From positions 105,748-169,747 of the IMG/VR virus record IMGVR_UViG_3300022696_000071: a stretch of 64,000 nt of DNA, one strand, 5' to 3'. Made by a program: the position numbers and the translations under genes. The notes under the pieces are model-generated. The model had not been told where the DNA came from. It did no database searches and saw nothing but the letters and a program-made list of their open reading frames with translations. Numbering within the stretch: position 1 is the first letter of the stretch; each line of letters begins with the position of its first letter. Of this stretch, positions 5,430 to 47,919 are shown in pieces. The stretch is from a virus.

Positions 5430-5717
5430 TTATTCGCGTTTGGGTTTCTTCAACCCGAGCGCTTCAGAAACGGGTTTGTTTAAATCGGCAGTTATTGCCG
5501 ATTTCAACTTCCCTTTATTGATGACAGCCAGCGTGACGAACACGCCGACAACGATGCCAACCACCCACAACAGGGGGTCAGCGAACGATATCATTTTGTG
5601 GGAGTACATGAACAAATAGTACTCCCACAAAAGTCCGTCTAATCCTGCCGGTTTACCCCCATAAATGGAGATAAACTCGAACAAAACAAATCCTTCTACC
5701 AAACACGTAAATAACAT
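5430..5717 (-). CDS. small membrane protein
   Basis: 95 aa with two hydrophobic segments. GC-richer. Flanked by a bidirectional hairpin at 5369-5427. Confidence 0.35.
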   Translation of the reverse strand: MLFTCLVEGFVLFEFISIYGGKPAGLDGLLWEYYLFMYSHKMISFADPLLWVVGIVVGVFVTLAVINKGKLKSAITADLNKPVSEALGLKKPKRE

Positions 5718-16114: not shown

Positions 16115-16552
16115 ATGATGATGGAAATTGTTGGGAACATGGTTGAAAATGTAGTTTTTAATCTTCTCGAACTCAAAGAGGAGATGAAACAAAGAATGGA
16201 GGCTGGTAAAGTCGCCATTTTAATGCAGAAGATCGACGTTGTCTCTTCTACGAGTTCATCGAATGATGGGGACGTATTCGATGGGCTTAACATTGACGTT
16301 CTCAAGACGCCGGAAAAGATAATGGAAAAGTACGGCGTCGAGTTCCCCAACTATCCCATAGTCGAATCCACCGACGACTATGGGCTGGTGTGGTGGACCG
16401 ATGTGTCTAAGTTGGATCAGGATGAGATTATGAAGTTTAAGATCATTCTGATCGCCATCAATAACGTTAAAGATGGCTCCACTGCCGAAACCACTTGGCT
16501 TCGGCAGTGGCACAAATGGGTTGAGCGGAATGGGCAATGCGATCCGATTTAG
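16115..16552 (+). CDS. hypothetical acidic protein
   Basis: 145 aa. RBS ATAAAGGAGGAATGGTATG. Promoter motif at 16064-16090. Confidence 0.45.
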   Translation: MMMEIVGNMVENVVFNLLELKEEMKQRMEAGKVAILMQKIDVVSSTSSSNDGDVFDGLNIDVLKTPEKIMEKYGVEFPNYPIVESTDDYGLVWWTDVSKLDQDEIMKFKIILIAINNVKDGSTAETTWLRQWHKWVERNGQCDPI

Positions 16553-16609
16553 CATTGCCCGAAAATTAGCTACGATGATTGTATATATCGTGGCTAATTT
16601 TTTATACGA

Positions 16610-16634
16610 TTCACTATATATATTAAGTAATAAC
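16610..16634 (+). promoter_or_regulatory. conserved promoter-like motif TTCACTATATATATTAAGTAATAAC
   Basis: Identical 25-mer at 17410-17434. Upstream of mini-gene 16670..16834. Confidence 0.5.
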
Positions 16635-16669
16635 ATAGTAAATAAATTATCAAGAAAGGAGGTGAGAAC

Positions 16670-16834
16670 TATGTTAAGCGGTTTCTTTAAAGCCGCTGGT
16701 TGGGTGGCAGGGGCAACCTTGTCCGCCTACGCCAGCGTGAAACTCGTCGAGCACTGTGAGAGAGTGCTCGACGAGAATCGGGAAATGCGGAAGCGTCTGG
16801 GGATCGAAGATCCCCTCAAGACTTCCACTTCCAA
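16670..16834 (+). CDS. small Gly/Ala-rich amphipathic peptide (GC-rich mini-gene)
   Basis: MLSGFFKAAGWVAGATLSAYAS... (55 aa). RBS AAAGGAGGTGAGAACTATG. Promoter motif at 16610-16634. Hairpin terminator at about 16848-16900. Internal start of track ORF 16473..16841. Confidence 0.4.
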
Positions 16835-16955
16835 AAAATAACCTCTACGAAAAAAAGGACCCAGATATATTGTCTGTATATGTATCTGTGGTTCTTTTTT
16901 TGTTATATATTAAATTATAACTTTAAACCATTTTATTTATATAGGAGATGTTATT

Positions 16956-17434: not shown

Positions 17435-17470
17435 ACAACCAATAACTCATTAACTTAAAAGGAGGAAGTT

Positions 17471-17638
17471 ATGAACATGAATGGATGGGCGAAATTCGGT
17501 ATGGCGGTAGGTGCAGTTGTGGTTGCGAATATAGCGTGCGCCGCCGCAGCAGGGACGTGGAACATGGTGAAAAACGCGGCCACTGCTGCTCGCGAGCAGC
17601 AGGAATCGATCGATGCGGCAAAGAAGGCGGCTAACTAA
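17471..17638 (+). CDS. small Gly/Ala-rich peptide (GC-rich mini-gene)
   Basis: Hand translation: MNMNGWAKFGMAVGAVVVANIACAAAAGTWNMVKNAATAAREQQESIDAAKKAAN. RBS AAAAGGAGGAAGTTATG. Promoter motif at 17410-17434. A 19-bp-stem inverted-repeat terminator at 17641-17714. Track ORF 17450..17674 (minus) is antisense to this and is rejected. Confidence 0.45.
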   Translation: MNMNGWAKFGMAVGAVVVANIACAAAAGTWNMVKNAATAAREQQESIDAAKKAAN

Positions 17639-17640
17639 CC

Positions 17641-17714
17641 CCCAACCCCAACCTATCTCACTCTCAGCCGGCATGCATCCCGCTTACGCCCAAGAGTGAG
17701 ATAGGTTGGGGTTA
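17641..17714 (+). terminator. long inverted repeat (about 19-bp stem CCCAACCTATCTCACTCT ... AGAGTGAGATAGGTTGGGG); probable terminator
   Basis: Immediately 3' of mini-gene 17471..17638. Confidence 0.5.
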
Positions 17715-17750
17715 ACTTAAAGTTAAATTTTTTGTTCATGATTTTATTTT

Positions 17751-19666: not shown

Positions 19667-19978
19667 ATGGTTATGATTAGTGGAAGACCATCGCATCCAG
19701 GACAAATATTAGTAGAATTTATCAATAATATTAAAGGGTTAACTGTTGATAAATTATCTGATGTCACCGAGATTGAAGAAAGATATTTATTGGAGTTAAT
19801 GATTGAAAAAGAATCAATGACTCCATATGTGGCGCAGGTATTTTCCAGGGTATTTTCGACAACACCTTCTTATTGGATAGATCTTCAATCTAAACTCGAT
19901 CTGTGGGAAAACCATGTTAAACATGAACAGTTTTTAAGTGGGTTAGAATCATTGGTTGATACAAATATAGAACAATAA
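19667..19978 (+). CDS. HigA/VapI-like HTH antitoxin-family protein (XRE-type)
   Basis: HPGQILVEFI...LTVDKLSDVTEIEERYLLELMIEKESMTPYVAQVFSRVFSTTPSYWIDLQ. This matches the HigA antidote-family pattern (HPGE-IL...WLNLQ). RBS AAGGAGATATGGTTATG. Confidence 0.55.
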   Translation: MVMISGRPSHPGQILVEFINNIKGLTVDKLSDVTEIEERYLLELMIEKESMTPYVAQVFSRVFSTTPSYWIDLQSKLDLWENHVKHEQFLSGLESLVDTNIEQ

Positions 19979-20064
19979 TATTTATTTAAAAATTGGCTAA
20001 ATAATAATCACATAGATTAGAATATCATTTTAATCTATGTGATTATTTGAAAGGAGATATGGTT

Positions 20065-21507
20065 ATGTGTGGAATAGGATGTGTTTGGTTCAGAGAAAGT
20101 GTTGATGTGGAAATTTTGGAAAAAATGCTGGAAGCAACTGAAAAAAGGGGAAAAGATGCATTTGGATATGCAATAATACGATATGATAAAACTGAAGATG
20201 ATTATGTTTTATTTGATATAAATCGATATGGTAAATCTTATAGTGAAATCAAACAAAATATCAATCTTTTTACAGTATTAAAAGTTGGAGATATAATTAT
20301 ATGGAATAATAGAGCAAAACCAATGACTGAATTTTCATCTGTAGATGGAGATGATAGAACAATTCAACCGATATGGTACAGAGATGAAGGGATCATTATG
20401 GTTCATAATGGTGTTGTATCGAATGAAGATGAAAAATTTAAAAGAAGAACAAAAATAGATTCTGAATTTTTCATTCATAGATATTTAAAAAATGGAAGAA
20501 ATATTAAAAAGACAGCAGAAGAAATGATTGGTGGATCTGCTTATATATACGTTGATCTAAGAAGAGATATACTTGGTGTTGTAAGAGATTTCAGACCATT
20601 GGGGAAAGCATATAAGAAGGGTGTTGGTTATTTTGTAATGACTGATACTGATGAATTCTATAATGTCTTTGGTGATATGGATGTGGCTATATGGGAAAAT
20701 TTCTATTATAGCAATATACAACAATTTACTACAAATGAGGTAGATTTAAATTCTGGTCTAATTAACAGAAAAGAATTTGAACCAAATTATATATCATCTC
20801 TTCCAGAACAAGATCCAAATAAAGTACTTGTAATGTCATCTGGTGGAGTTGATTCTTCTGTTGCTGCATGTGTTGCTGCAAAATTATTGAGAAAAGAAGT
20901 TACACTTGTTCACTTTGATATTAAACAAAAGAATAATCCAGGTGAAATTCGTGCAGTTAATTACTTAAGAGAATTTCTAAGATGTAGACTCGATTATGTT
21001 GATTTACGATGGCTTGGATCATATGGAAAAAGTGTATTAACAGATAATCAATTAAAAGTTCCAAGTGGGTCAGTTAAATCAAATTTGAAAAATACAGTAT
21101 GTTGGGTGCCAGCAAGAAATCTTATAATGTTATCATGTTTGATGGGTGTTGCTGAAGCTATAGGTGCAAGTGAAATATATAATGGTTTTACTCAAGAAGA
21201 AGGCACGGTTTACAATGACAATTCAACATCATTTTTCAATGCAATGAATTATGTGTCTGATTTTGGTACTCTTAAACGACCAAAAGTAAAAACCATTCTT
21301 GGGAATCTGATGAAGCCAGAAGTTATTAAACTTGGATGGTATTTTGGATTAGATTTCAGTCAATTGTGGTCATGCGATACATATAATGAAAAAACTGGTA
21401 AAGAATGCGGTGAATGTGGTGCGTGTACGCTTAAGGCTTTAGCGTTAGAACATGCTAAACAATTAGACAGACCACCAGAAGAAATAATAAATAGGTTGAA
21501 ATATTGA
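20065..21507 (+). CDS. Gat-QueC: class-II glutamine amidotransferase domain fused to a QueC-like PP-loop ATP pyrophosphatase (7-deazaguanine pathway)
   Basis: N-terminal MCGIGCVW (Ntn Cys nucleophile). SGGVDSSVAA PP-loop (SGGxDS). C-terminal CDTY...CGECGACTLK Zn motif typical of QueC. The track starts at TTG 20047. ATG at 20065 has better RBS spacing (AAGGAG at 20051-56). Confidence 0.75.
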   Translation: MCGIGCVWFRESVDVEILEKMLEATEKRGKDAFGYAIIRYDKTEDDYVLFDINRYGKSYSEIKQNINLFTVLKVGDIIIWNNRAKPMTEFSSVDGDDRTIQPIWYRDEGIIMVHNGVVSNEDEKFKRRTKIDSEFFIHRYLKNGRNIKKTAEEMIGGSAYIYVDLRRDILGVVRDFRPLGKAYKKGVGYFVMTDTDEFYNVFGDMDVAIWENFYYSNIQQFTTNEVDLNSGLINRKEFEPNYISSLPEQDPNKVLVMSSGGVDSSVAACVAAKLLRKEVTLVHFDIKQKNNPGEIRAVNYLREFLRCRLDYVDLRWLGSYGKSVLTDNQLKVPSGSVKSNLKNTVCWVPARNLIMLSCLMGVAEAIGASEIYNGFTQEEGTVYNDNSTSFFNAMNYVSDFGTLKRPKVKTILGNLMKPEVIKLGWYFGLDFSQLWSCDTYNEKTGKECGECGACTLKALALEHAKQLDRPPEEIINRLKY

Positions 21508-21609
21508 AATGGGATTATTGGTAATTCACTGAAATGTACGATAAGATTTAATTATATATATTAATTAATAATCAATAATCATTTAACCATATATAAAGGA
21601 GGAAATATT

Positions 21610-21840
21610 ATGGTTACGTCTAAAAGAGAGTCGTGGAATCAGGGTGGCGTTTTTCACGCCGCTTCCACGATTTCAATTGGTGGTTCCACAACATCTGGTT
21701 ATGGGACCGCCGCCTCAATCAATGGCCGAGTATACGTACATGTATACTCGACTCCAACCAACAAAAATAGGCGGGAGTTCTATAACCGCCTTAACTCGGA
21801 ATTGAGATGGGCGAGACAAATGACAACGCCCATCATGTAG
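21610..21840 (+). CDS. small hypothetical protein (GC-richer)
   Basis: 76 aa. RBS TATAAAGGAGGAAATATTATG. Promoter motif at 21551-21575. Confidence 0.4.
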   Translation: MVTSKRESWNQGGVFHAASTISIGGSTTSGYGTAASINGRVYVHVYSTPTNKNRREFYNRLNSELRWARQMTTPIM

Positions 21841-21928
21841 CCAAAAAGCCATGCATACACTAAGCGAGTATCATTCAAGTATGCATGGCTTTGCCCGATT
21901 TAATATTTTTTATCAAAAAGGAAATAAA

Positions 21929-22375
21929 ATGACTGATATAGAAACAAATGAAAAAATTGGATTTGATTTAGATGGTGTTATTTGTTTTGAACCAGCAGAT
22001 CTGTGGCAGAAATTTGTATTTAATGCAGAAGATGGTGTAAAATATCGGCATGAACAACCCGTATGTTATAGACCAATGGTGAAGGGGCATATTATAACGG
22101 GTAGAAGAATTGACGATGAACAAATCACATATGATTGGTTATCTATGAATGATATTGAATTTATAAATGTTCATTTTGGACTAAATCATTATATGCCTCA
22201 AATTCTTCTTCATAAAGCTGATATGATAGACCAACTCGATTTAGATATTTATGTCGAAAGTTGTAGTTATATCACAATGTGTTTAATGAGAATGATCAAT
22301 TCAAATTGCAGAATTGTATTGCCTGACAGTTCAATTGTAAGAAACTATTTAAAACTTGAATATAAATTATCGTAA
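21929..22375 (+). CDS. HAD-superfamily phosphatase or nucleotidase-like protein
   Basis: HAD motif I FDLDGVI near the N-terminus. Internal ATG at 21929 is preceded by AAAAAGGAAAT. The track ORF starts at 21851. Confidence 0.5.
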   Translation: MTDIETNEKIGFDLDGVICFEPADLWQKFVFNAEDGVKYRHEQPVCYRPMVKGHIITGRRIDDEQITYDWLSMNDIEFINVHFGLNHYMPQILLHKADMIDQLDLDIYVESCSYITMCLMRMINSNCRIVLPDSSIVRNYLKLEYKLS

Positions 22376-22721: not shown

Positions 22722-22756
22722 AATAACCTATTTAATCCAAAAGGAAGGAGGGCGCA

Positions 22757-22927
22757 TATGCCTTACCATAGGAGAGACGATATAAGTTGTTGGTCCTGTC
22801 GTAAAGACGGGACCAACGATTGCCCGAATGGTCATCATTCGGGCAATTATTTTAACGGGCAAGATTGGTGCCACGCCTGGGCACCGATCCGCCGCGAAGA
22901 AACCCGGGAAGAGTCCGCCGAGTAGAC
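22757..22927 (+). CDS. small Cys/His-rich peptide (GC-rich mini-gene, not in the track)
   Basis: Hand translation: MPYHRRDDISCWSCRKDGTNDCPNGHHSGNYFNGQDWCHAWAPIRREETREESAE. RBS AAGGAAGGAGGG. Promoter motif at 22695-22721. Hairpin plus T-run at about 22941-22985. The antisense track ORF 22728..22949 is rejected. Confidence 0.4.
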
Positions 22928-23027
22928 TCTTCCCACAACCCCCCATCAAGTCAGTATGATTGGTGGGGGTTTCTTTTTTTCTATATATATTAAATTATAA
23001 GTATTTGAATTCGTTTTAATTTTTTAT

Positions 23028-23399
23028 TTGAAAGGATATAATATGAGAATGTGGATGATTGATCCAAAGAAATTATGTCGTAAACACTTACTTGGGGAGC
23101 ATGGCGAAATACATAAACATCGTCATAATTTTGTTAAGCATCATCGTATCGATGGTAGACTATTACCCATAGTTCAAATACAACCAGCAGACATGAGTAA
23201 GAGACATGATGAACTGGCTGAAGAAATGTTAAGAAGGGGATATAATCATCAATCTCCTTATGACCAACCAGATATTTCTTATTTGGCAGAATGGAAACAA
23301 CAGTCGAAAGTTGATCTATTAATAAGTGAAAAAGACTTATGTAAACGATGTAAACAATGTAGAGAACTAATTATGGGAGAGGAAAACAATGATAAATGA
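23028..23399 (+). CDS. pyrimidine-dimer DNA glycosylase-like protein (T4 endonuclease V / DenV family)
   Basis: N-terminal MIDPKKLCRKHLLGEHGEIH resembles the L-x2-HLMAEYREL signature of T4 DenV. 123 aa. Promoter motif at 22977-23000. Confidence 0.45.
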   Translation: MKGYNMRMWMIDPKKLCRKHLLGEHGEIHKHRHNFVKHHRIDGRLLPIVQIQPADMSKRHDELAEEMLRRGYNHQSPYDQPDISYLAEWKQQSKVDLLISEKDLCKRCKQCRELIMGEENNDK

Positions 23400-26060: not shown

Positions 26061-27107
26061 ATGAAAACAGAACACAGTCTATATTATGGTCATTCAAAAG
26101 AGTTACTTAAATCAACAGCTTCAGATTGTGTTGATTTAATAGTAACATCTCCACCATATCCCATGATTAAAATGTGGGATGATATATTTATAGATCAAGA
26201 ACCATTACTGAAACAATATTTAAATGATGGTTATGGTAAAGATGCATTTAATGCAATTCATAATAATATATTAACTCCAATATGGATTGAATCATATAGA
26301 GTTCTTAAAGAAGGTGGTATATTATGTATAAATATAGGAAATGCAGTAAGAACATTAAATAGTAATTTTAGAATGTATGATAATTGTTCAAGAATATCTA
26401 ATACTTTGAATAATATGCGACTATTAGTTCAATTACCATCTATAATATGGAGAAAACCAACAAATTCACCAAATAAATTCATGGGATCTGGAATGTTACC
26501 AGTTGGTGCATATATAACATTAGAGCATGAATTTGTATTGATATTTAGAAAAGGTGAGAAAAGAAAGTTTAATGGTGTAGAACAAGATATAAGACGAGAG
26601 AGTGCAATATTTTGGGAAGAAAGAAATAAATGGTTTTCAGATGTTTGGACTGATCTCCCTGGGATATCACAAGATTTAAACAATAAAGAAACAAGAAAAA
26701 GAAGTGGTGCATATCCACTTGATTTACCATATCGATTGATAAATATGTTTTCTATAAAAGGAGATACTGTTCTTGATCCATTTCTTGGAACTGGTACAAC
26801 TATGATTGCTGCTATGGCTTCAGAACGAAACAGTATTGGTTTAGAATTAGATAAAACTCTTGAACCAATAATAAATATTTATATGAATAATTTGAAAAAT
26901 ATAAGTGATCTAATTATAAAAGAAAGATTGTTAAATCATAAAGCATTTGAAACACGTATGTCTAATGATAATAAAGAACTTAAATATAATAATAGATATC
27001 ATGATACGCGAGTTGTATCAAAACATGAAAGATTTATTAAACTGAAGCATGTAAACAAAATAAATAAAAAAACACCAACTAAATTTGAAGTAACATATGG
27101 TAAGTGA
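26061..27107 (+). CDS. DNA methyltransferase, beta class (N4-cytosine or N6-adenine); apparently an orphan
   Basis: Motif IV LIVTSPPY precedes motif I DTVLDPFLGTGTT (beta-class order). An SPPY tetrapeptide is typical of N4mC methyltransferases. No nuclease partner is recognisable nearby. Confidence 0.7.
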   Translation: MKTEHSLYYGHSKELLKSTASDCVDLIVTSPPYPMIKMWDDIFIDQEPLLKQYLNDGYGKDAFNAIHNNILTPIWIESYRVLKEGGILCINIGNAVRTLNSNFRMYDNCSRISNTLNNMRLLVQLPSIIWRKPTNSPNKFMGSGMLPVGAYITLEHEFVLIFRKGEKRKFNGVEQDIRRESAIFWEERNKWFSDVWTDLPGISQDLNNKETRKRSGAYPLDLPYRLINMFSIKGDTVLDPFLGTGTTMIAAMASERNSIGLELDKTLEPIINIYMNNLKNISDLIIKERLLNHKAFETRMSNDNKELKYNNRYHDTRVVSKHERFIKLKHVNKINKKTPTKFEVTYGK

Positions 27108-37768: not shown

Positions 37769-38964
37769 TTTACTTCTCCCAATATCCCACTCGTCTTCAT
37801 GAATTCTGCTAATTTTTTCAGCGGAAGAATATTCTTCGAAGCGAGTGTTTTTATAAGATCATGACCTTTTCCCTTGCCATGAACGTATTTTATCGAACAG
37901 ATCATTAACTCTTTATTCGACTTATGAATCTTATTCAAAATATCTACGTAGATTTTTGAATAATATACTCTTTCTTTTTCATTATCTGTCGAATAATAGT
38001 GGGAATAATATGCATCAGTTACTGCATATATAAATGCAAATCGTTCAACTGATTTAACAGGAATATCAAACTGTCCTGTTGCAAAGATCGCTTTCGTATC
38101 AAACTGAGAATATATGTCTGTATAGATCTTGAACTTCGCTGCTGCTTCATGTCCAACGTATGCAGCATAAATGGAACTTTGCGTTGATCCAGACAATTTT
38201 TTCCACATATCTCTTTTCTGAAGAGCTTGAATCTTCGTTGAGAGATATGTCCAAGAACGAGGAGAGGGCCAGGGGTCAACCATTGATTCTTCACCCTGAA
38301 AGAATTCTCTATTTGACATATCTTCCAAAAACGAGATAATCGGACCATATACTTCATTTTTGAAAGCAAATTTATCACGCCAATTCTTATACGATGGTTT
38401 GATATAATATTTGGCAACTCGGTTCATCACTGCACCGAATTGGGGTTTGGAGCCAGACAGTGCTTTATCATTGCCAGCAAGCATTATTAATGTGTCTGCC
38501 GGAAACCCTTTACCTCTAATTGTATAATCAGTAAATGCTTCGAATCCGACTGATTGAACTGATTTTGAGGCAAGATGCCAATCATCGATTACAATCAAAA
38601 CTGGTTTTTCTTTACTTAATTCTCTTGCTTCACATATAATATCTGGAATAGACCAGATTGTATGCATTTCTTTTCTCTTTCCTTCTTCCGATTCAATATG
38701 TAAAAAGTCGGGTATACCGCCCAACTCCTCAACTTTCAAGAATCCAGCATTTCGAACGATAAGATGGAAGTTTTGCTTTTTCGCAAGTTCACGAAGTGAT
38801 TCAGTTTTACCGGAACCGGGAGGTCCAACGAAATAGTTGATTGCCATTTTTATTTCTGGGTTCTCGATCTTTTCTTTGTGATCGATAATAGCTATACTAA
38901 TAGCTTCATGTAAATTAAGAACATGATCACTCATAACAGTACCACTTCTTCCATTTTCAGACAT
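37765..38964 (-). CDS. AAA+ ATPase (MoxR-like partner of the vWA protein)
   Basis: Walker A VGPPGSGKT. Walker B LIVIDDWH. 399 aa. Confidence 0.6.
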   Translation of the reverse strand: MSENGRSGTVMSDHVLNLHEAISIAIIDHKEKIENPEIKMAINYFVGPPGSGKTESLRELAKKQNFHLIVRNAGFLKVEELGGIPDFLHIESEEGKRKEMHTIWSIPDIICEARELSKEKPVLIVIDDWHLASKSVQSVGFEAFTDYTIRGKGFPADTLIMLAGNDKALSGSKPQFGAVMNRVAKYYIKPSYKNWRDKFAFKNEVYGPIISFLEDMSNREFFQGEESMVDPWPSPRSWTYLSTKIQALQKRDMWKKLSGSTQSSIYAAYVGHEAAAKFKIYTDIYSQFDTKAIFATGQFDIPVKSVERFAFIYAVTDAYYSHYYSTDNEKERVYYSKIYVDILNKIHKSNKELMICSIKYVHGKGKGHDLIKTLASKNILPLKKLAEFMKTSGILGEVK

Positions 38965-40576: not shown

Positions 40577-41248
40577 TTATATCATAGTGAATTTTCTATT
40601 TACGTGAGTCGTAAACTCTTTATTCACATCGAGATTTTTCAAAAAGCTACCTCTCAACGCAATCATCGTAACACCATCTGCATGTTCGCCCTGTTCAACT
40701 CCCCGTGCACACATACAGTTATGTATTGCTTCAGTAGCAACCCCTAATCCTTCTACGCTCAATTTATCAACCATTAGGGATGCCAATATATTTGTAAAGT
40801 CTTCTTGAAGTATTGGTGCACGACCAATCATTTTTACAGTTTCTGATATTTTTGATAAACCAGGAACTTTACATCGCTTTGGTATATCATGCTGTGTTGG
40901 AATATACCCAACCACCACTTTATATCTTACATCTTCGAAGTGATGAGGACACAGGGAGTGGATTCTAATTACTTGAGATACAATCATTCCATTAAATTGT
41001 GTTGGGAATGATTTAGTCTCTAATCCACTGTAATCAAGATTATGATAATCTATTCCAGAACATCGTTCCAATACCATTGATTTTGCAATTCGGGTTGGGG
41101 TATCTCTGAAATTTTCATCAGATCTCCAATCGACATAAAATGCATCTAATATTGTATTCCATGCATCTTCAATCATTGATATTTTAGTTTCATTATCATT
41201 ATTTGATGGTTTAACGCTACCAAACTTAAATAGATTGTTTTCAGGCAT
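40577..41248 (-). CDS. folE: GTP cyclohydrolase I (FolE); first step of 7-deazaguanine / preQ0 synthesis
   Basis: FolE motifs: DTPTRIAKSM, LCPHHF (CEHH-equivalent), GLSKISETV (GLSKIAR), QEDFT (QERLT), HNCMCARGV (HLCMxMRGV). 223 aa. Confidence 0.75.
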   Translation of the reverse strand: MPENNLFKFGSVKPSNNDNETKISMIEDAWNTILDAFYVDWRSDENFRDTPTRIAKSMVLERCSGIDYHNLDYSGLETKSFPTQFNGMIVSQVIRIHSLCPHHFEDVRYKVVVGYIPTQHDIPKRCKVPGLSKISETVKMIGRAPILQEDFTNILASLMVDKLSVEGLGVATEAIHNCMCARGVEQGEHADGVTMIALRGSFLKNLDVNKEFTTHVNRKFTMI

Positions 41249-41263
41249 TTTATATTTCCTGTT

Positions 41264-44263
41264 TTAATTTTTTATTTTTAAACCAAGTATGTCTAAATAT
41301 GCTTCTAATAATTTCATACTTTGTGGTCTGTCATCAAATGAATCATCAGATAAGCTTGGATTATTTAATATATCTTTTGTTAATAATTTATTCTTTAATC
41401 CCGGCGAATCACTCTGAACAGTTAACAAATCTCTTAAGAAATTTGTTCCACCATGAGCCAATAAAGCCCACGTTTCCATCTCACCAAATCTATGACCACC
41501 ACTCCTTGATTTACCACCAAGTGGTTGAAGTGTCTTTTTACTATATGGTCCAATACTTCTTGCTGCCATTTTTTCAGATGATCGATGTATTAATTTAGTA
41601 AAGAATATATATCCAGATACGATAAATCTTTTTATATTCATTCCTGTTTCTGGATCAAATATTTCATATCTAAATTCCGAATCAACAATAAACATTAAAT
41701 TGAATAAATCATATATAGATATTGATTGGAATGGTGGTTGTATGAAATATAAGTTTTCTTCTGGATCATTGTTATTATTATAATTTTCTATAAATTCAGA
41801 TCTTATTTTATTTTTTATCCATTCATCATCTGTTTTATCAATTATATCAAGAACTTGATCCAAAAGTTCTAATTTATCATCTAAACCATCAATTTCTTTT
41901 AATTTCAATTTTAATTGATGAAGACATTCGCTCATGTGTAATTCATATAATTGACCAATATTCATTCTTGATATAATACCAAGTGGATTTATAATAATAT
42001 CTAAATTCCTTCCATCTGGTAATTTTGGCATTTTATTATCTGGAATTATTCTTGATATTATACCTTTGTTACCGTGTCTGTTTGCTACTTTATCACCTTC
42101 TCCTATTTGTTGTTCATATACTGCTTGCATTTTTACAAGTATCCCGCCAAATCGTTTTCCTTTGTGTGCATATTTCCCTTTTTGATTAACACAATCTAAT
42201 CGAGATAGCCCATTTTTAGTTACAAATGCATTCACATCATCTTTATTGTCCATAAATCTCTCAAGCCGACTATATAATTGAATATAATTATCAGTTTGAG
42301 TAATCATCATCCTTTCTATAAAATCATGAAATTCTTTTATTTGTTTATTCCAACTATTTGGATATATTTCAATATCGGTTATCGTACAATCAACTGGAGC
42401 AGTTGGTTCAAATGGTTCAATATTTATTGATTCAAAACCATCTTCATCGTCAATAGTTTTAACTCTTGCATAAATCTGACCCTTTTTAAGTTTATCACCA
42501 ACTGAAAATAGTGGCATATATTCTTCATCGATTAAACTTAGGAGGACTTGTCCAGGTTCTATGCTAAAAGTAAGATCAATACTATGTAATGAAGTGAATT
42601 TTTTTCTTGTTGATTCACTTATTACAATACCATCTTCATAGTTCCAACCTTTCCATATAGCTATACCTGTTAATAAATTATGACCAAGTTTCAATTCACC
42701 ATTATCAAGCGTTATAGATTCACATAAAATATCACCCTTTTTAAATTCTTCTCCAACTTTATAGTAACATTTTATGTAATCAACGGTGTTTTGATACATG
42801 TTTCTATAATTTATATTTATAACTTCTGATGTTTTATCAACATACATTGCAATTACAAATTTATTATTGGCATGAACAATAGCACCATCATTTTTTGCAA
42901 TATGGGTAAAAGTGGTATGCTCAATATTCATACTTTCTAAGCCACTTCGTATAAATGGTTTCTCAGAATCTTTTAATATTATTGATTGTTTCAATTGATT
43001 TGATGCCATTTGAAGTCGAATCTGGTCATCATTTTTAAGAAATGGAACAAGAGATATAGGGTAAGATGTTATAACTTCTTGATCTGGAGTTCCAAATATT
43101 CCATTTTCTCCAATATCTATTGTTGGAATCATATTTAATATAACACCACAACCTTCCCGGTCTGGTGTATCTGCTGGACATACATATCCAAACTGACTAT
43201 GATGAATATCTCTAAGATGGTTTGGAACATTTTCTTTCTTAAATCCACCTGGACCAGTTAGAGACAATTGACACATGGAAGCGATTTCTGTGACAGGATT
43301 TATTGGAAAGTTAAAATGAACAATACTACTCACATTACAACCATCCAATATAATATTTTTGTTTATCTTAAATTTCGTATTTTTTGGATCGTTGTTTATT
43401 GTTACAATCATATCATAAAATTTTTTGACCAATGGAAACAGTATATATTCTGATAATCTTATTCTTTTTCTTTTGAATGTTTTATCAGATTTAGAACCAT
43501 CGTATATTCCCTGCAACAATTCGAATAGTATTGATTCAGTTTTCATTAATTTTTTGCTGAATATATCTATTTCATATGCTGCTTTTAACGAAAATAAAAC
43601 ACTTTTCCCTTTTTTATATTTATCTATATTGGCAGAAGAGTATAATTTTCCTATATTTGTTGTTCTCTCCTTTTTGCTTATATCGTATAATTTTTTACAC
43701 TCTACTATAAGATTATTTACATATTGATTATTTGGTCTTCCAGCTATAAACTCTTCAATTTCTTCTTTTGTATGAAATGTTGAAAGAAGAAGAGCAAGAG
43801 ATATTTTTTTATTAAAAAGAGTTACTATATAATTCTCTCTATCTCTTATATTATTGAGATTAAGTTCTATATTTATCGTATTTGTTCTTAATTTCAATAA
43901 ACCATTTCGATATATAATTGGAAAATCGTATAATTGAAAGATTGGTATCTTCAGATATCCACCAATATAGAAAAAATGATTTTCTATGATATCAGGTATT
44001 TTAATATCATAATTAAGATCTTTTTTCTTTCGTGTATTTCCATTTTTTAAAGTAGCTCTAAGTATCGAATATATATTATATTTCAATTCTTCAAGACGCT
44101 TTGCATGAGAATTTATCCAATCACATTTCTCAAAAGTCCAGTTATTGATTAAAGATACATTTTCGAATATTTCAGTTATTAACCGTTTTATTCGATCTTT
44201 ATCCCACTCGATACTTCTTCTAAAAAATATATCATTCTTCTTGTATCTTTTATCCATAATCAT
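41264..44263 (-). CDS. rpoB: DNA-directed RNA polymerase beta subunit (C-terminal two-thirds; N-terminal lobes absent)
   Basis: GPGGFKKENVPNHLRDIHHSQFGYVCPADTPDREGCGVILNM. NRHGNKGIISRI. PDGRNLDIIINPLGIISRMNIGQ. GHRFGEMETWALLAHG. 999 aa. The conserved GPGG block sits at about residue 335 versus about 566 in E. coli beta. Confidence 0.85.
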   Translation of the reverse strand: MIMDKRYKKNDIFFRRSIEWDKDRIKRLITEIFENVSLINNWTFEKCDWINSHAKRLEELKYNIYSILRATLKNGNTRKKKDLNYDIKIPDIIENHFFYIGGYLKIPIFQLYDFPIIYRNGLLKLRTNTINIELNLNNIRDRENYIVTLFNKKISLALLLSTFHTKEEIEEFIAGRPNNQYVNNLIVECKKLYDISKKERTTNIGKLYSSANIDKYKKGKSVLFSLKAAYEIDIFSKKLMKTESILFELLQGIYDGSKSDKTFKRKRIRLSEYILFPLVKKFYDMIVTINNDPKNTKFKINKNIILDGCNVSSIVHFNFPINPVTEIASMCQLSLTGPGGFKKENVPNHLRDIHHSQFGYVCPADTPDREGCGVILNMIPTIDIGENGIFGTPDQEVITSYPISLVPFLKNDDQIRLQMASNQLKQSIILKDSEKPFIRSGLESMNIEHTTFTHIAKNDGAIVHANNKFVIAMYVDKTSEVININYRNMYQNTVDYIKCYYKVGEEFKKGDILCESITLDNGELKLGHNLLTGIAIWKGWNYEDGIVISESTRKKFTSLHSIDLTFSIEPGQVLLSLIDEEYMPLFSVGDKLKKGQIYARVKTIDDEDGFESINIEPFEPTAPVDCTITDIEIYPNSWNKQIKEFHDFIERMMITQTDNYIQLYSRLERFMDNKDDVNAFVTKNGLSRLDCVNQKGKYAHKGKRFGGILVKMQAVYEQQIGEGDKVANRHGNKGIISRIIPDNKMPKLPDGRNLDIIINPLGIISRMNIGQLYELHMSECLHQLKLKLKEIDGLDDKLELLDQVLDIIDKTDDEWIKNKIRSEFIENYNNNNDPEENLYFIQPPFQSISIYDLFNLMFIVDSEFRYEIFDPETGMNIKRFIVSGYIFFTKLIHRSSEKMAARSIGPYSKKTLQPLGGKSRSGGHRFGEMETWALLAHGGTNFLRDLLTVQSDSPGLKNKLLTKDILNNPSLSDDSFDDRPQSMKLLEAYLDILGLKIKN

Positions 44264-44539: not shown

Positions 44540-47500
44540 TTAATATTTAAATAATTCAGTCAGTGCTGATGAATTATCAGATCTATTATTTATAAGACCT
44601 TCCAACAATTTAGCTTTCAAATTAGCAAACATAGCTCCAAGTAACCATGATGTTCGTGATGGTATCTGAAGAATACTCACGAATTCATAATCAACATCAT
44701 TTCTGTTTGAAACTAATCTCCAAAGATCATTATCAACCCACATCATAGCAGATACAATTATTTCATAATGAACCATATGTATATTTTTATATTCTCCGAA
44801 TATACTATACATGAATTTGAGTAAATGTATTGGTTTACTTATATTCTCATCTCCATCTATTTGTTTTAATTTTGTTGGATTATGAAATAATTTATTTGCT
44901 ATATTAATACCACTAATAATATCTTCATTGTGAGAACCACCATCATCTGAATCTTCATCACTTACTCTATTTACAACACCGCTATTGTGAACAAATACAC
45001 CAGAAGATACTGGAAAATTATGATATTCATTATCAACTTCTAAATCATAAAATTCTTCTTCTTTATCTAATTCTATAAATTCTATATTATTAACTTTATG
45101 ATTGTATCCGCATGGGATGTCATGGTTTGGATCGGGGATAGGAGCATAATCATTATATAATTTATTTCTAAGATAATCTGGCGACCACTTGAGAAGATGT
45201 TCTCTATCATGTATTTTTCGACCATACATTTCTTTATTAATTTTATCAAATTGACTCAAACATAATCTAATATTGTTATCTTTCATATGTTGAAGTATTT
45301 TATCCATCATTGTTTCTGCAATACGTTGTTGTTTTGATCGATTATCTTCAACTCGATCATCAACAAGATGAGACAGAAAATCTGGAGAATGTTTAAGAAG
45401 ACCTTCTATCGTCTTCCTACTTAACGCTTTTGGATAAACAATTTCATTAGCTTTATCAAATGATGTATAAGTAAGAGGCATATCGAGTTCTTCCATCTTA
45501 GCAAGAACTTTTTTCATACGAGATTCACATTGAAGTTGTTGTCTCGATTTACCAGTTACTTTCCCTTTACTGTCACTACTCACTATTCGTCTTTCACCAC
45601 CAACTGGTTCGAGATGATTAAGATAATCTGGTGATAATTCTAACATCTTTTCTCTATGATGTGTTTTATCACCATATATTTCTCTATTTGATTTATCAAA
45701 ACTACCATATGTCATTGGAAGATTATTTTCTTCCATGTGTTTAAGAACTCTATCCATTCGTGATTCAGCATGAAGTTGTTGACGAGGTTTTTTAACTATA
45801 TCATCAATAAATCCAATCATTAAATCTTCATGATCTTTTATTGCATATTTATATGTTGGATATCTTAATCCAGCAGATTTAAAATATTTTTCTCGAATCA
45901 TATTAAAGTTCGTAGATGTTTTTTCTAACTTAAGATCAGATATTAATTTTAATATGTTTTCAATACATGTACGCCTTACTTTAATTGATATTTGTTTACT
46001 TTTTTCAGGATTATCAATGTGCCATTGTTTACGTGTTTCTGATGCTTTTATTCTTGCATCCTCTCCATGCATTTTTATATGTTCATCTGCATCTATTATT
46101 TGTATATTTGTAGGATAATCATTTTTAATATCATTATCGATATGATGTCTATGTATATTATTAGTTTTATTTATTTTCTCACAATCTGAGTGGTCTGATG
46201 ATAAATGGAATATTAAATCTCTCCTATAACCATTTGCTTTTGGTTCTTTATAATTTTGTTGAATTCTTCTTCTTCCCTCCATTCTACTACTAAGTGTACC
46301 ATATTCTAATAGATAACAAGGCATTAAAGAATCCCATTTCTTTAAATCTTTTGCTTTCTTATATGTACCATTACGCATCATCATTTCATGATCAGGTGTA
46401 ACTTTTATTATTTTCTTATTGTCTAAAGTTATTTTTACCATCTTATTCGTTATATGATCTTTAAACACATTCAATACTTTAGATACAACTATTTTTCCAT
46501 CTGGTGAACATGAAAAAGTATAAATATCTTCACTATTAATATTTATACGTTCATATAATTCATCCATTCGTATATGATTATTGTTTACATCTATTATACA
46601 AGTGTCGCGTGAAAGGCTTTCATGGAAGGTACGCAGTACAAGCTGCACGAGTCTCTCCCCGATTGAGTGAACAGCCATTATACCAATTTCATCGCTATGA
46701 AGTATTTTATGAAGATTACCATAACAAGTTTTACATATTTTTTCAGATTCACAATAAATTGGAGATCTTAGTTTTATATTTTTTCCAATTATATCATTTA
46801 TGTTCGAAGTTCTAATTGGAATAACATTACCATTATCATCCACATAATTTCTCCAGAGTAGAACTCTTGCCATCTTTTTATCTCGTACATATATCTCCAA
46901 ATAATCTTTAGTACAACAATCAATTTTATTGTGATCTATTTGATAATTAATACAACTGTATATTAATTGACGTGTTAAATATCCAGAATCACCAGTTGAT
47001 AATGCTGTATCCAATAATCCCTTTCTTGCACCATAACACGATTCAAAAAATTCTTTCTGATTCAACCCTTCCACCATACTACTTCGAATCAGATCTGGCC
47101 TAATATTTCCTTTTGAATCTGATACATAGCCCCTTGTGAATACAAGTTGCTTTGCTTGTTTCCATGAACCTCTCGCCCCCGACTTTATATACTGTGAGAA
47201 TGGTAAACTATCTAATAATTCATGTACTTCTTCTGAATTTTCGATAATATTCATATCATCTACAATATTACCAGTTAATTCTTTATTCTTCTTCAATAAT
47301 TCTTCTTTGAATATATCATCTAATCCAAGTGTATATCCTCGAATAGTTGACAATGAAAAACCAAGATTTTTAATTTTATCCAGTGTTTTTATAACTTTAG
47401 ATGGTGGATATGATAATACAATTTTATTTAATAAATTAAGTAATTTTCTCTTATCAATAACATCATCTATAATTGGATAATCTTCTGGTAAGCATTTATT

Positions 47501-47902
47501 AAATAATGCTCTCCCTCTTGATAATTGTACCCCTTTATATTCAACTAATTCAGTCAGCATATCATCAGTTGTTTCACCATTATTAATTTGAGTAGCACCA
47601 TATATTCCAAGAATAATGTCTTGATTGGGGCGAGGTACAAGAGTAATATCTGTTTGAGATAATAAATTATTCCATATTCCTATTCTTTCTTTCACATCAT
47701 TTTTTGATTCTTCTGTAATTGGAAAGTATAATGCCATACAATCTTGTACATATACACCATCGTGAGTTGAAAATGTAAAATAATCTTCAACAGTGAAATC
47801 ATATCCAATTGTTTTAGATGGATCTTTTTTAATAGAGATAGAAGAAACAGGAATTAAATTATATTTTTCTTCCAATTCTTTTTTTGATATTTTATTCGTC
47901 AT
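44540..47902 (-). CDS. rpoC: RNA polymerase beta' C-terminal part. Begins with a 54-aa C-intein fragment and contains a second, full-length intein.
   Basis: Residues 1-54 end with the intein block F/G-like GYDFTVEDYFTFSTHDGVYVQD. Residue 55 onward, CMALYFPIT, aligns with E. coli QMAVHVPLT, which follows NADFDGD. Beta' motifs present: GARKGLLDTALSTGDSGYLTRQL; LRTFH (trigger loop); GINIANKLFHNPTK; C-terminal SILQIPSRTSWLLGAMFANL. RBS AAGGAAAAAATTATAATG. Confidence 0.85.
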   Translation of the reverse strand: MTNKISKKELEEKYNLIPVSSISIKKDPSKTIGYDFTVEDYFTFSTHDGVYVQDCMALYFPITEESKNDVKERIGIWNNLLSQTDITLVPRPNQDIILGIYGATQINNGETTDDMLTELVEYKGVQLSRGRALFNKCLPEDYPIIDDVIDKRKLLNLLNKIVLSYPPSKVIKTLDKIKNLGFSLSTIRGYTLGLDDIFKEELLKKNKELTGNIVDDMNIIENSEEVHELLDSLPFSQYIKSGARGSWKQAKQLVFTRGYVSDSKGNIRPDLIRSSMVEGLNQKEFFESCYGARKGLLDTALSTGDSGYLTRQLIYSCINYQIDHNKIDCCTKDYLEIYVRDKKMARVLLWRNYVDDNGNVIPIRTSNINDIIGKNIKLRSPIYCESEKICKTCYGNLHKILHSDEIGIMAVHSIGERLVQLVLRTFHESLSRDTCIIDVNNNHIRMDELYERININSEDIYTFSCSPDGKIVVSKVLNVFKDHITNKMVKITLDNKKIIKVTPDHEMMMRNGTYKKAKDLKKWDSLMPCYLLEYGTLSSRMEGRRRIQQNYKEPKANGYRRDLIFHLSSDHSDCEKINKTNNIHRHHIDNDIKNDYPTNIQIIDADEHIKMHGEDARIKASETRKQWHIDNPEKSKQISIKVRRTCIENILKLISDLKLEKTSTNFNMIREKYFKSAGLRYPTYKYAIKDHEDLMIGFIDDIVKKPRQQLHAESRMDRVLKHMEENNLPMTYGSFDKSNREIYGDKTHHREKMLELSPDYLNHLEPVGGERRIVSSDSKGKVTGKSRQQLQCESRMKKVLAKMEELDMPLTYTSFDKANEIVYPKALSRKTIEGLLKHSPDFLSHLVDDRVEDNRSKQQRIAETMMDKILQHMKDNNIRLCLSQFDKINKEMYGRKIHDREHLLKWSPDYLRNKLYNDYAPIPDPNHDIPCGYNHKVNNIEFIELDKEEEFYDLEVDNEYHNFPVSSGVFVHNSGVVNRVSDEDSDDGGSHNEDIISGINIANKLFHNPTKLKQIDGDENISKPIHLLKFMYSIFGEYKNIHMVHYEIIVSAMMWVDNDLWRLVSNRNDVDYEFVSILQIPSRTSWLLGAMFANLKAKLLEGLINNRSDNSSALTELFKY
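44984..46600 (-). mobile_element. intein 2 (539 aa) inserted in the beta' trigger-loop region; carries an HNH endonuclease motif and three tandem ~55-aa DNA-binding-module-like repeats
   Basis: Starts at Cys (RDT|CIIDVNN). Block B-like VTPDHEMM. HNH-like HRHHIDNDIKNDYPTNIQIIDADEHIKMHGE. Ends EYHNFPVSSGVFVHN|S. Three repeats: HAESRMDRVLKHMEENNLPMTYGSFDK / QCESRMKKVLAKMEELDMPLTYTSFDK / RIAETMMDKILQHMKDNNIRLCLSQFDK. Codon boundaries checked against the DNA. Confidence 0.7.
47741..47902 (-). mobile_element. C-terminal fragment of split intein 1 (54 aa), fused in frame to the beta' C-extein
   Basis: MTNKISKKELEEKYNLIPVSSISIKKDPSKTIGYDFTVEDYFTFSTHDGVYVQD followed by C+1. The terminal residue is Asp rather than Asn. 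Confidence 0.6.
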
Positions 47903-47919
47903 TATAATTTTTTCCTTTT

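Follow-up and report, generated by a model that had tools for sequence, protein, structure and literature searches.

The open reading frame (ORF) at 20065..21507 of the 64,000-nucleotide stretch of viral DNA analysed here (IMG/VR record IMGVR_UViG_3300022696_000071, positions 105,748 to 169,747; hereafter the window) is a real, intact and very divergent two-domain Gat-QueC gene. We consider it probable, at roughly 60%, that its product is an active glutamine-dependent enzyme in a pathway that modifies phage DNA with a 7-deazaguanine, a scheme whose conjectural parts are the substrate, the product, the link to the FolE of the window and a DpdA transglycosylase in the genome. Phage DNA carrying 7-deazaguanine bases resists many restriction enzymes; the known derivatives number eight. 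The initial annotation of this region had remarked that the architecture is known from phages that modify their DNA, which agrees with a report showing that Gat-QueC and DpdA of phage 9g gave 2'-deoxyarchaeosine (dG+) in DNA, even in a ΔqueC host (PMC6884629). The system is a divergent variant of a known one, with known architecture and logic, a new clade and altered substrate-pocket residues. It places an archaeosine-type amidotransferase in a giant phage that is very divergent and encodes a multisubunit RNA polymerase of its own; the virus is uncultured and represented by a metagenomic contig.

Domains and conserved residues of Gat-QueC

The gene and its parts are located as follows.

20065..21507, + strand: gat-queC, a 480-aa fusion of a class-II (N-terminal nucleophile, Ntn) glutamine amidotransferase with a PP-loop ATP pyrophosphatase of the QueC type
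20065-20784, + strand: glutaminase domain, about residues 1-240
20800-21456, + strand: QueC domain, about residues 246-464
20839..20856, + strand: PP-loop SGGVDS, the ATP pyrophosphatase motif and the sole such motif in the window by six-frame scan
21373..21426, + strand: zinc-binding Cys4 site, C437-x10-C448-x2-C451-x2-C454, in (nearly) invariant alignment columns

The reading frame is open over 20047..21507 (+) from a TTG, and its functional start is the ATG at 20065, from which the product begins MCGIGC. This start was chosen because an AGGAG lies 9 nt ahead of it (AAAGGAGATATGGTTATGTGT) and because an Ntn amidotransferase needs a Cys right after the initiator Met. The description first given to the product, a class-II glutamine amidotransferase (MCGIGC) fused to a QueC-like PP-loop enzyme with a Cys4 site, was borne out by Pfam, PHROGs, profile comparison with the PDB and structure prediction. 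Pfam QueC matched residues 253-464 (E 2.4e-41, 142 bits against a cut-off of 22), and GATase_6/7 matched residues 91-185, the score of GATase_6 being 28.5 bits (cut-off 27). In PHROGs, the protein matched families 10428 and 1550; the matches comprise a QueC-like family and one mislabelled L-glutamine-D-fructose-6-phosphate aminotransferase in GenBank. The profile of the family recovered the QueC structures 2pg3 and 3bl5 on residues 246-463 (E ~1e-28) and the glutaminase domain of GlmS (1xff) on residues 2-237 (E 7.6e-13). An AlphaFold2 (AF2) model built from an alignment of 15 homologues reached a mean predicted local distance difference test score (pLDDT) of 88.2 and a predicted template modelling score (pTM) of 0.78. 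Searched with Foldseek, the whole chain of this model led to asparagine synthetase B and GlmS, and its C-terminal domain to QueC with TM scores of 0.74-0.79.

The residues expected of a working enzyme are largely shared with the functional Gat-QueC of phage 9g. In the glutaminase domain these are C2, R28, G29, R83, H114-N115-G116 and D132-S133, and in the QueC domain they are S259GGxDS, R351 (in VPARN), Y383 and the four cysteines C437/C448/C451/C454. A 2026 study found that Y35, R99, Y131 and Y189 of E. coli QueC are essential for preQ0 (7-cyano-7-deazaguanine) formation (PMC13329287); R351 and Y383 of the window protein are the equivalents of R99 and Y131. The motif LEExGxYPDN is of the Gat-QueC type: the consensus of the window clade, TLEEEGSYPDNS, agrees with the 9g sequence, NLEEAGAYPDNE, whereas canonical QueC has GYPDC. 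At this site the window protein reads QEEGTVYNDNS, with the Tyr, Asp and Asn retained and the Pro replaced by Asn.

Compared with canonical QueC (7-cyano-7-deazaguanine synthase; 3bl5, 2pg3), the window protein has in common the C-terminal fold, SGGxDS, VPxRN, the Tyr of YPDC and the Cys4 site. Canonical QueC, which lacks a glutaminase domain, draws on free ammonia, whereas in the window protein a glutaminase is fused to the synthase and the Cys of YPDC is missing. Asparagine synthetase B and the other Ntn amidotransferases joined to a PP-loop domain are the best structural matches of the whole chain, and they follow the same logic, with glutamine hydrolysis coupled to adenylation of a carboxylate; the synthetase domain of the window protein, in contrast, is of the QueC family with its zinc site and not of the Asn_synthase family. 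The archaeal Gat-QueC of Crenarchaeota, which converts preQ0-tRNA to archaeosine, shares the domain fusion, and the amidotransfer chemistry proposed for it is the same (PMC6884629, PMC10516641). Unlike the phage setting, the archaeal enzyme acts on tRNA in cells, and it was compared by description only.

Just 5' of gat-queC, the gene at 19667-20047 (+) resembles a HigA/XRE-type helix-turn-helix protein by inspection of its sequence, without confirmation by Pfam. It is followed by a near-perfect 21-nt hairpin (20003-20023 / 20027-20047) reaching up to the gat-queC ribosome-binding site (RBS).

Relatives of Gat-QueC and their gene clusters

Identity to GenBank phage Gat-QueCs was at most 30% for all those listed, including phage 9g (27.6%), Vibrio phages (27.4%) and the jumbo Xanthomonas phage PhiXhv-12 (27.4%). 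A large protein collection held a 100% identical copy (P0001, on a 201,166-bp contig of the Joint Genome Institute, JGI) and 16 relatives at 37-61% identity. In a HMMER scan, 708 clusters formed at 50% identity matched the family profile at E <=1e-30, and the best 150 of them were mostly full-length two-domain proteins. The scans made recovered the family from viruses and metagenomes only, and among the best 80 loci of the cellular-genome scan there was only plain bacterial QueC. Judged from the tree, the window protein belongs to an uncultured viral clade that is deep and separate from 9g.

The neighbourhoods of the relatives were read and their ORFs clustered; seven of these loci have a Gat-QueC at least 51% identical to that of the window (L165, L001, L166, L085, L251/252, L003 and L253/254). 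A transglycosylase homologue adjoins the Gat-QueC gene in five distinct lineages. DpdA1-like genes stand directly after the HAD-like gene described below in L085 (E 1.4e-32 to a Vibrio phage DpdA) and L251/252; genes like tRNA-guanine transglycosylase (TGT) with the catalytic DSGGFQ occur in L004/5, L086 and L087 (NCBIfam TGT, E 6e-8 and 2e-9); and L006/7 has a weak DpdA1-like match beside Gat-QueC. Because genes of the DpdA/TGT type lie beside the relatives' Gat-QueC in five lineages, a role in DNA modification is supported. These neighbours provide the strongest support for such a role, as far as the genomes of relatives can speak for the window phage.

Other genes of the pathway are found in the same clusters. 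Among relatives at 38-61% identity, many encode FolE, QueD (CxxxHGH), QueE (NCBIfam E 1e-30) and a small phosphoribosyltransferase (PRTase), and almost all have a QueC paralogue of 220-235 aa together with a ~330-aa enzyme resembling radical S-adenosylmethionine (rSAM)/SPASM proteins (L001, L003, L004, L006, L008, L010, L087, L089, L166, L251 and L254). The paralogue is non-canonical, without equivalents of Y35 and Y131, and its family gave 575 matches at E <=1e-5. The rSAM/SPASM enzyme, for which a RaSEA-like function was considered, had only generic NCBIfam matches, and its best solved relative was MoaA (E 7e-13). Genes for a short-chain dehydrogenase/reductase (SDR), a glycosyltransferase (GT2 or GT8-like) and UDP-glucose dehydrogenase were variably present.

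The 9g-type system of the Queuovirinae (FolE, QueD, QueE, Gat-QueC and DpdA1, with dG+ as product) is the closest characterised counterpart in its two domains, glutaminase residues, PP-loop and Cys4 site, and a DpdA1-like gene is nearby there as in some relatives of the window protein. The 9g operon is compact, in the order QueE–Gat-QueC–QueD–FolE–DpdA–clamp–pol, whereas the window genes are scattered or missing. The HAD-like partner of the clade and the QueC paralogue and rSAM/SPASM enzyme of the relatives are not annotated in the 9g stretch compared here, where no search for them was made. The clade gene sets differ from the Queuovirinae operon in these three components and in the PRTase. 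Phage immuto_2-6A is also large with dispersed pathway genes, its FolE and small PRTase are homologous to those of the relatives of the window clade, and its T4-type terminase is distantly related to that of the window (26% identical). It differs in having plain QueC, QueF and DpdN rather than Gat-QueC, and nothing in the window corresponds to its DpdA3.

The gene that accompanies Gat-QueC in the clade is also present in the window, where a spacer separates the two.

21508..21928, + strand: spacer splitting the Gat-QueC/HAD pair, 421 nt
21555-21603: promoter-like motif in the spacer
21610-21840: 76-aa ORF with a perfect RBS, in a GC-rich structured island
21929..22375, + strand: small cap-less phosphatase-like gene of the haloacid dehalogenase (HAD) type, 148 aa from the ATG at 21929 (ORF open from 21851)

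A homologue of 21929..22375 (135-190 aa) was found 3' of Gat-QueC in 7/7 close relatives. It usually overlaps or abuts Gat-QueC and lies several genes downstream in L003 and L253. Six of the homologues were aligned, and DLDGV, IIT-R, K and E were invariant, matching HAD motifs I-IV. Matches to described families were weak (phrog_415 and phrog_8630 for the L001 member; Pnkp1 at E 0.15), and the window protein itself had no Pfam match and no PDB match, and its single-sequence AF2 model was unusable (pLDDT 32). By this sequence comparison, the HAD-like gene appears to be a conserved, previously unrecorded partner of the Gat-QueC clade.

The island at 21600-21910 has a predicted RNA fold of −122 kcal/mol (z = −8.0 against shuffles), and Rfam gave no match at the gathering threshold, with only sub-threshold noise in 16-23 kb. 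It is regarded as an insertion because the flanking genes abut in relatives; this GC-rich structured insert, which splits the pair in the window, had not been noted before, and a structured RNA and a small GC-rich gene are the candidates for what it encodes. Similar short islands of 45-60% GC occur at 5441-5690, 16261-16890, 17441-17750 and 22741-23010. The promoter-like motif of the spacer belongs to a conserved pattern, TATATATTAA-N2-4-ATAA(C)…AACCATTT, with 17 sites in the window, mostly 35-45 nt 5' of AAGGAG and an ATG (e.g., 16060, 16617, 17417, 17757, 21555 and 22703 on the + strand; 7142 and 2989 on the − strand). A phage-specific promoter is its probable function, and the RNA polymerase of the phage itself may be the one that uses it.

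The small PRTase (~130 aa) of the relatives was located at 5341-6291 in L006/L007, 14139-14525 in L001, 9573-9998 in L003 and 31931-32326 in L255. In L006/7 it forms a fusion with FolE, and in phage immuto_2-6A it adjoins FolE; salvage of guanine or a precursor is our guess for its role. Toyocamycin synthesis (ToyH/ToyI) follows a route at the nucleotide level with a PRTase and a phosphatase. A comparable replacement of DpdA by the small PRTase and the HAD-like phosphatase was considered and rejected, given that immuto_2-6A has the same PRTase beside FolE plus DpdA3 and that in L085 and L251/252 a DpdA1-like gene comes after the Gat-QueC–HAD pair.

Mini-inteins of ~140 aa were found in the Gat-QueC of two relatives (P0003 and P0008), right after the position of window residue 382, inside LEEEG|SYPDN. 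Many of the longer proteins in the family (600-990 aa) show a split between profile positions 356 and 380, in most cases at 374-380. The mini-inteins at this conserved site of the relatives' proteins fit a site that is functionally important.

NADAR enzymes reverse ADP-ribosylation of guanine bases. Genes for a NADAR-domain protein and a Thg1-like protein lie near the deazaguanine clusters of relatives (L003 3495-4707; L254 3505-4747; L001 21095-21407), where NADAR may be another guanine-centred counter-defence. In PhiXhv-12, a cultured jumbo phage (L168; PV764601.1 120910-124144), the Gat-QueC homologue has genes for an LmbE-like deacetylase and a glycosyltransferase as neighbours. QueD, QueE and DpdA are all absent within 8 kb, and the homologue may serve a different pathway. 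Vibrio phage V07, first taken as a jumbo-phage example, was dropped: its record is flagged UNVERIFIED_ORG and duplicates a Queuovirinae cluster.

Proposed pathway and competing explanations

In the reading we favour, a 7-deazaguanine DNA modification pathway, the N-terminal Cys of Gat-QueC would hydrolyse glutamine and the ammonia would pass to the PP-loop domain. This domain would adenylate the 7-carboxyl of 7-carboxy-7-deazaguanine (CDG), or act on the nitrile of preQ0, to give an amide or amidine product, namely 7-amido-7-deazaguanine (ADG), preQ0 or archaeosine base (G+). A transglycosylase of the DpdA/TGT type would then swap guanine in the phage DNA for this base and so confer protection from restriction. 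The FolE of the window may raise the flux from GTP, and the conserved HAD-like phosphatase may be an accessory in the pathway. QueD, QueE and DpdA would be encoded in the ~137 kb beyond the window, or QueD and QueE might be supplied by the host.

GTP cyclohydrolase I catalyses the first step from GTP to 7-deazaguanines and also leads towards folate. The gene in question and its neighbour are:

40577..41248, − strand: folE, GTP cyclohydrolase I (Pfam GTP_cyclohydroI, E 2.2e-30)
41264..44263: RNA polymerase beta-like gene, 999 aa (Rpb2_6, E 3e-46)

The Pfam match of FolE scored 105.9 bits against a cut-off of 27 and covered positions 1-178 of 179, and the translation contains the zinc-ligand motifs CPHH and HNCMCARG. 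The NCBIfam FolE models matched at E ~1e-31, yet with ~107-111 bits against equivalog cut-offs of 162-202, and the protein is therefore divergent. It also matched the FolE of phages 9g, VspDsh_1 and immuto_2-6A (E 5e-14 to 7e-23). The gene lies directly 3' of the RNA polymerase beta-like gene, so that the initial annotation of a FolE next to rpoB holds.

The remaining genes were looked for in several ways. The window is 64 kb of the 201,166-bp JGI contig, and the scans covered these 64 kb. Pfam was run on all 79 non-overlapping window ORFs, concatenated as pseudo-proteins, and PHROGs on the unannotated ORFs of 140-480 aa. Hidden Markov models (HMMs) built from relatives and characterised phages (TGT-like, DpdA1-like, QueD, QueE, QueC paralogue, rSAM/SPASM and PRTase) were compared with every ORF of 40 aa or more. 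DpdA1-type and TGT-type profiles and the DpdA3 of immuto_2-6A were compared by hhalign with all ORFs of at least 150 aa. A six-frame scan covered the motifs DSGGFQ, CxxxHGH, CxxxCxxC and those for phosphoribosyl pyrophosphate (PRPP).

Several results weigh against the proposed pathway. As the initial annotation had already observed, QueD, QueE and DpdA were not recognisable in the window. No DpdA, whether DpdA1, TGT-like, DpdA3 or, via Pfam, DUF6610/DpdA4, was found in the 64 kb, the best hhalign probability being 2.4% against 74-100% for the positive controls, and Pfam, PHROGs, HMMs and the motif scan detected no QueD or QueE there. A second QueC was likewise not found in the 64 kb, where the scans returned nothing except Gat-QueC itself. 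The QueC paralogue of the close relatives was not found on any contig of 201,166 bp among the 120 best of its 575 matches, whereas for P0002, P0004, P0007, P0010 and P0011, which served as positive controls, it lay on contigs equal in length to the Gat-QueC contig. Because of this difference, the window phage probably lacks the paralogue, so that Gat-QueC is its sole QueC-type enzyme as in 9g, on negative evidence that is weak. In addition, folE lies 19 kb from gat-queC on the opposite strand, in the RNA polymerase operon, and also serves folate synthesis. TIGR00364 of NCBIfam scored 124.5 bits on the QueC domain, under its equivalog cut-off of 150.3.

The substrate pocket also speaks against a simple assignment. 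In the window protein the equivalent of Y35 is Ile and that of Y189 is Asp, so the canonical QueC signature (Y35, R99, Y131, Y189) is incomplete. The 9g-type enzymes retain both tyrosines, whereas the window clade has I/L/F at the first position and D at the second; two tyrosines essential in the E. coli enzyme thus appear, from the alignment, to be absent from the whole clade, which is a new observation. Because these equivalents are lost, the sequence does not tell which reaction is catalysed (CDG to ADG, its continuation to preQ0, or preQ0 to G+). Our best guess, by analogy with 9g, is that dG+ is the most likely product, with 2'-deoxy-7-amido-7-deazaguanine (dADG) as a possible one.

The proposal that the phage modifies its DNA as an anti-restriction strategy, which had been put forward together with the methyltransferase described below, was only partly upheld. 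The enzyme identities and the transglycosylase context of the relatives favour it, while three genes of the pathway are not in the 64 kb and a choice between dG+ and dADG cannot be assigned. FolE and the methyltransferase may be tied to the Gat-QueC pathway.

These gaps would be expected if Gat-QueC, the HAD-like gene and FolE were all that the phage has, an orphan or host-dependent remnant without DpdA in a phage with unmodified DNA. The enzyme might then act on the pool of free bases and nucleotides or on the tRNA precursors of the host, for instance drawing host CDG or preQ0 away from queuosine. The lack of DpdA, QueD, QueE and the paralogue in the 64 kb is in line with this, as is the insertion that interrupts the conserved Gat-QueC/HAD pair. 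We nevertheless regard a remnant as rather unlikely. Two thirds of the contig lie outside the window, and pathway genes can be dispersed, the QueC of immuto_2-6A being 12 kb from the rest; the catalytic residues are all intact, and DpdA has been reported in every phage with 7-deazaguanine synthesis genes (PMC10516641). The whole fold matches asparagine synthetase B, which raises the question whether another carboxylate, such as that of a uronic-acid sugar or a sugar-decorated base, is amidated by similar chemistry in place of CDG or preQ0. The loss of the two pocket tyrosines would suit such a substrate, and so would the GT2/GT8-like glycosyltransferases, UDP-glucose dehydrogenase, SDR and sulfotransferase-like genes adjoining the relatives' Gat-QueC and the sugar-related surroundings of the PhiXhv-12 homologue, with none of QueD, QueE and DpdA nearby. 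This seems improbable to us, however, since the domain is QueC-specific by its Pfam match and its best structural matches, VPARN, Y383 and the 9g Gat-QueC motif are retained, the relatives' clusters also contain QueD, QueE, FolE and DpdA, and the Pfam and PHROGs scans found no sugar enzymes near gat-queC in the window.

The QueC-family proteins Cap9 and QatC ligate 7-deazaguanine to protein N-termini. Such chemistry is described in the literature. The window enzyme might modify a protein or tRNA rather than DNA, possibly as a counter-defence, and Cap9 was indeed matched (9nto_B; profile E 8.7e-12, model TM 0.78), as was the QueC model of PADLOC (E 4.5e-13). Canonical QueC was matched far more strongly (E 1e-28), though, and Cap9 and QatC are without a glutaminase domain. 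The vicinity of gat-queC has neither CD-NTase nor Qat partner genes, no tRNA genes were found in the 64-kb window, and the neighbours in relatives are DNA-replication genes and DpdA. We therefore consider deazaguanylation of protein or RNA very improbable.

A more far-reaching version of the DNA modification pathway, which we put forward tentatively and think unlikely on balance, is that the clade has an undescribed 7-deazaguanine hypermodification pathway making a base beyond the eight known derivatives, with a reduced form of this pathway in the window phage. The full pathway would comprise a Gat-QueC without the two tyrosines, an obligatory HAD-like phosphatase, the small PRTase (sometimes FolE-fused) and variable sugar-modifying enzymes, with the second, non-canonical QueC paralogue and the MoaA-like rSAM/SPASM enzyme in most relatives. 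The product might be, for example, an alkylated or glycosylated derivative of archaeosine or ADG. Action of the extra enzymes on the base would imply new DNA chemistries and enzymology; otherwise the clade would be another case of a known anti-restriction system.

Genome context and other genes of the window

The window has a GC content of 29.5% and the gene content of a large tailed phage, and no near match to it was found among GenBank phages. Its terminase is T4-type and only ~26% identical to known ones. The multisubunit RNA polymerase comprises the beta gene and split beta' genes, one of them with an intein. The two beta' ORFs, at 49019-50617 and 44540-47902 (−), make up the region 44540-50617; the one at 44540-47902 contains the intein (Pfam Intein_splicing, E 4.5e-17), and a DUF7487 ORF (47920-49032) sits between them.

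The DNA methyltransferase, initially annotated as an orphan, was recognised as follows.

26061..27107, + strand: beta-class N6/N4 DNA methyltransferase with the motif TSPPY (Pfam N6_N4_Mtase, E 4.3e-36)

The Pfam and PHROGs scans recognised no restriction enzyme adjoining it.

The following observations concern other genes. A DenV-like pyrimidine-dimer DNA glycosylase is encoded at 23028-23399 (+) (Pyr_excise, E 1e-10). At 55249-57593 (−), a JAB/MPN-like protein (motif HKHPDGCMSFSGTD) is flanked by two ThiF/E1-like proteins (Pfam ThiF, E 6.7e-24, two stretches), and together they look like a ubiquitin-like conjugation module. Lastly, the genes at 30686-33280, 36329-38964 and 2049-2921 (−) include those for an 864-aa protein with the shoulder domain of the major vault protein (E 1.6e-9), a DUF2201 metallopeptidase/VWA protein with an AAA ATPase, and a class-3 lipase.

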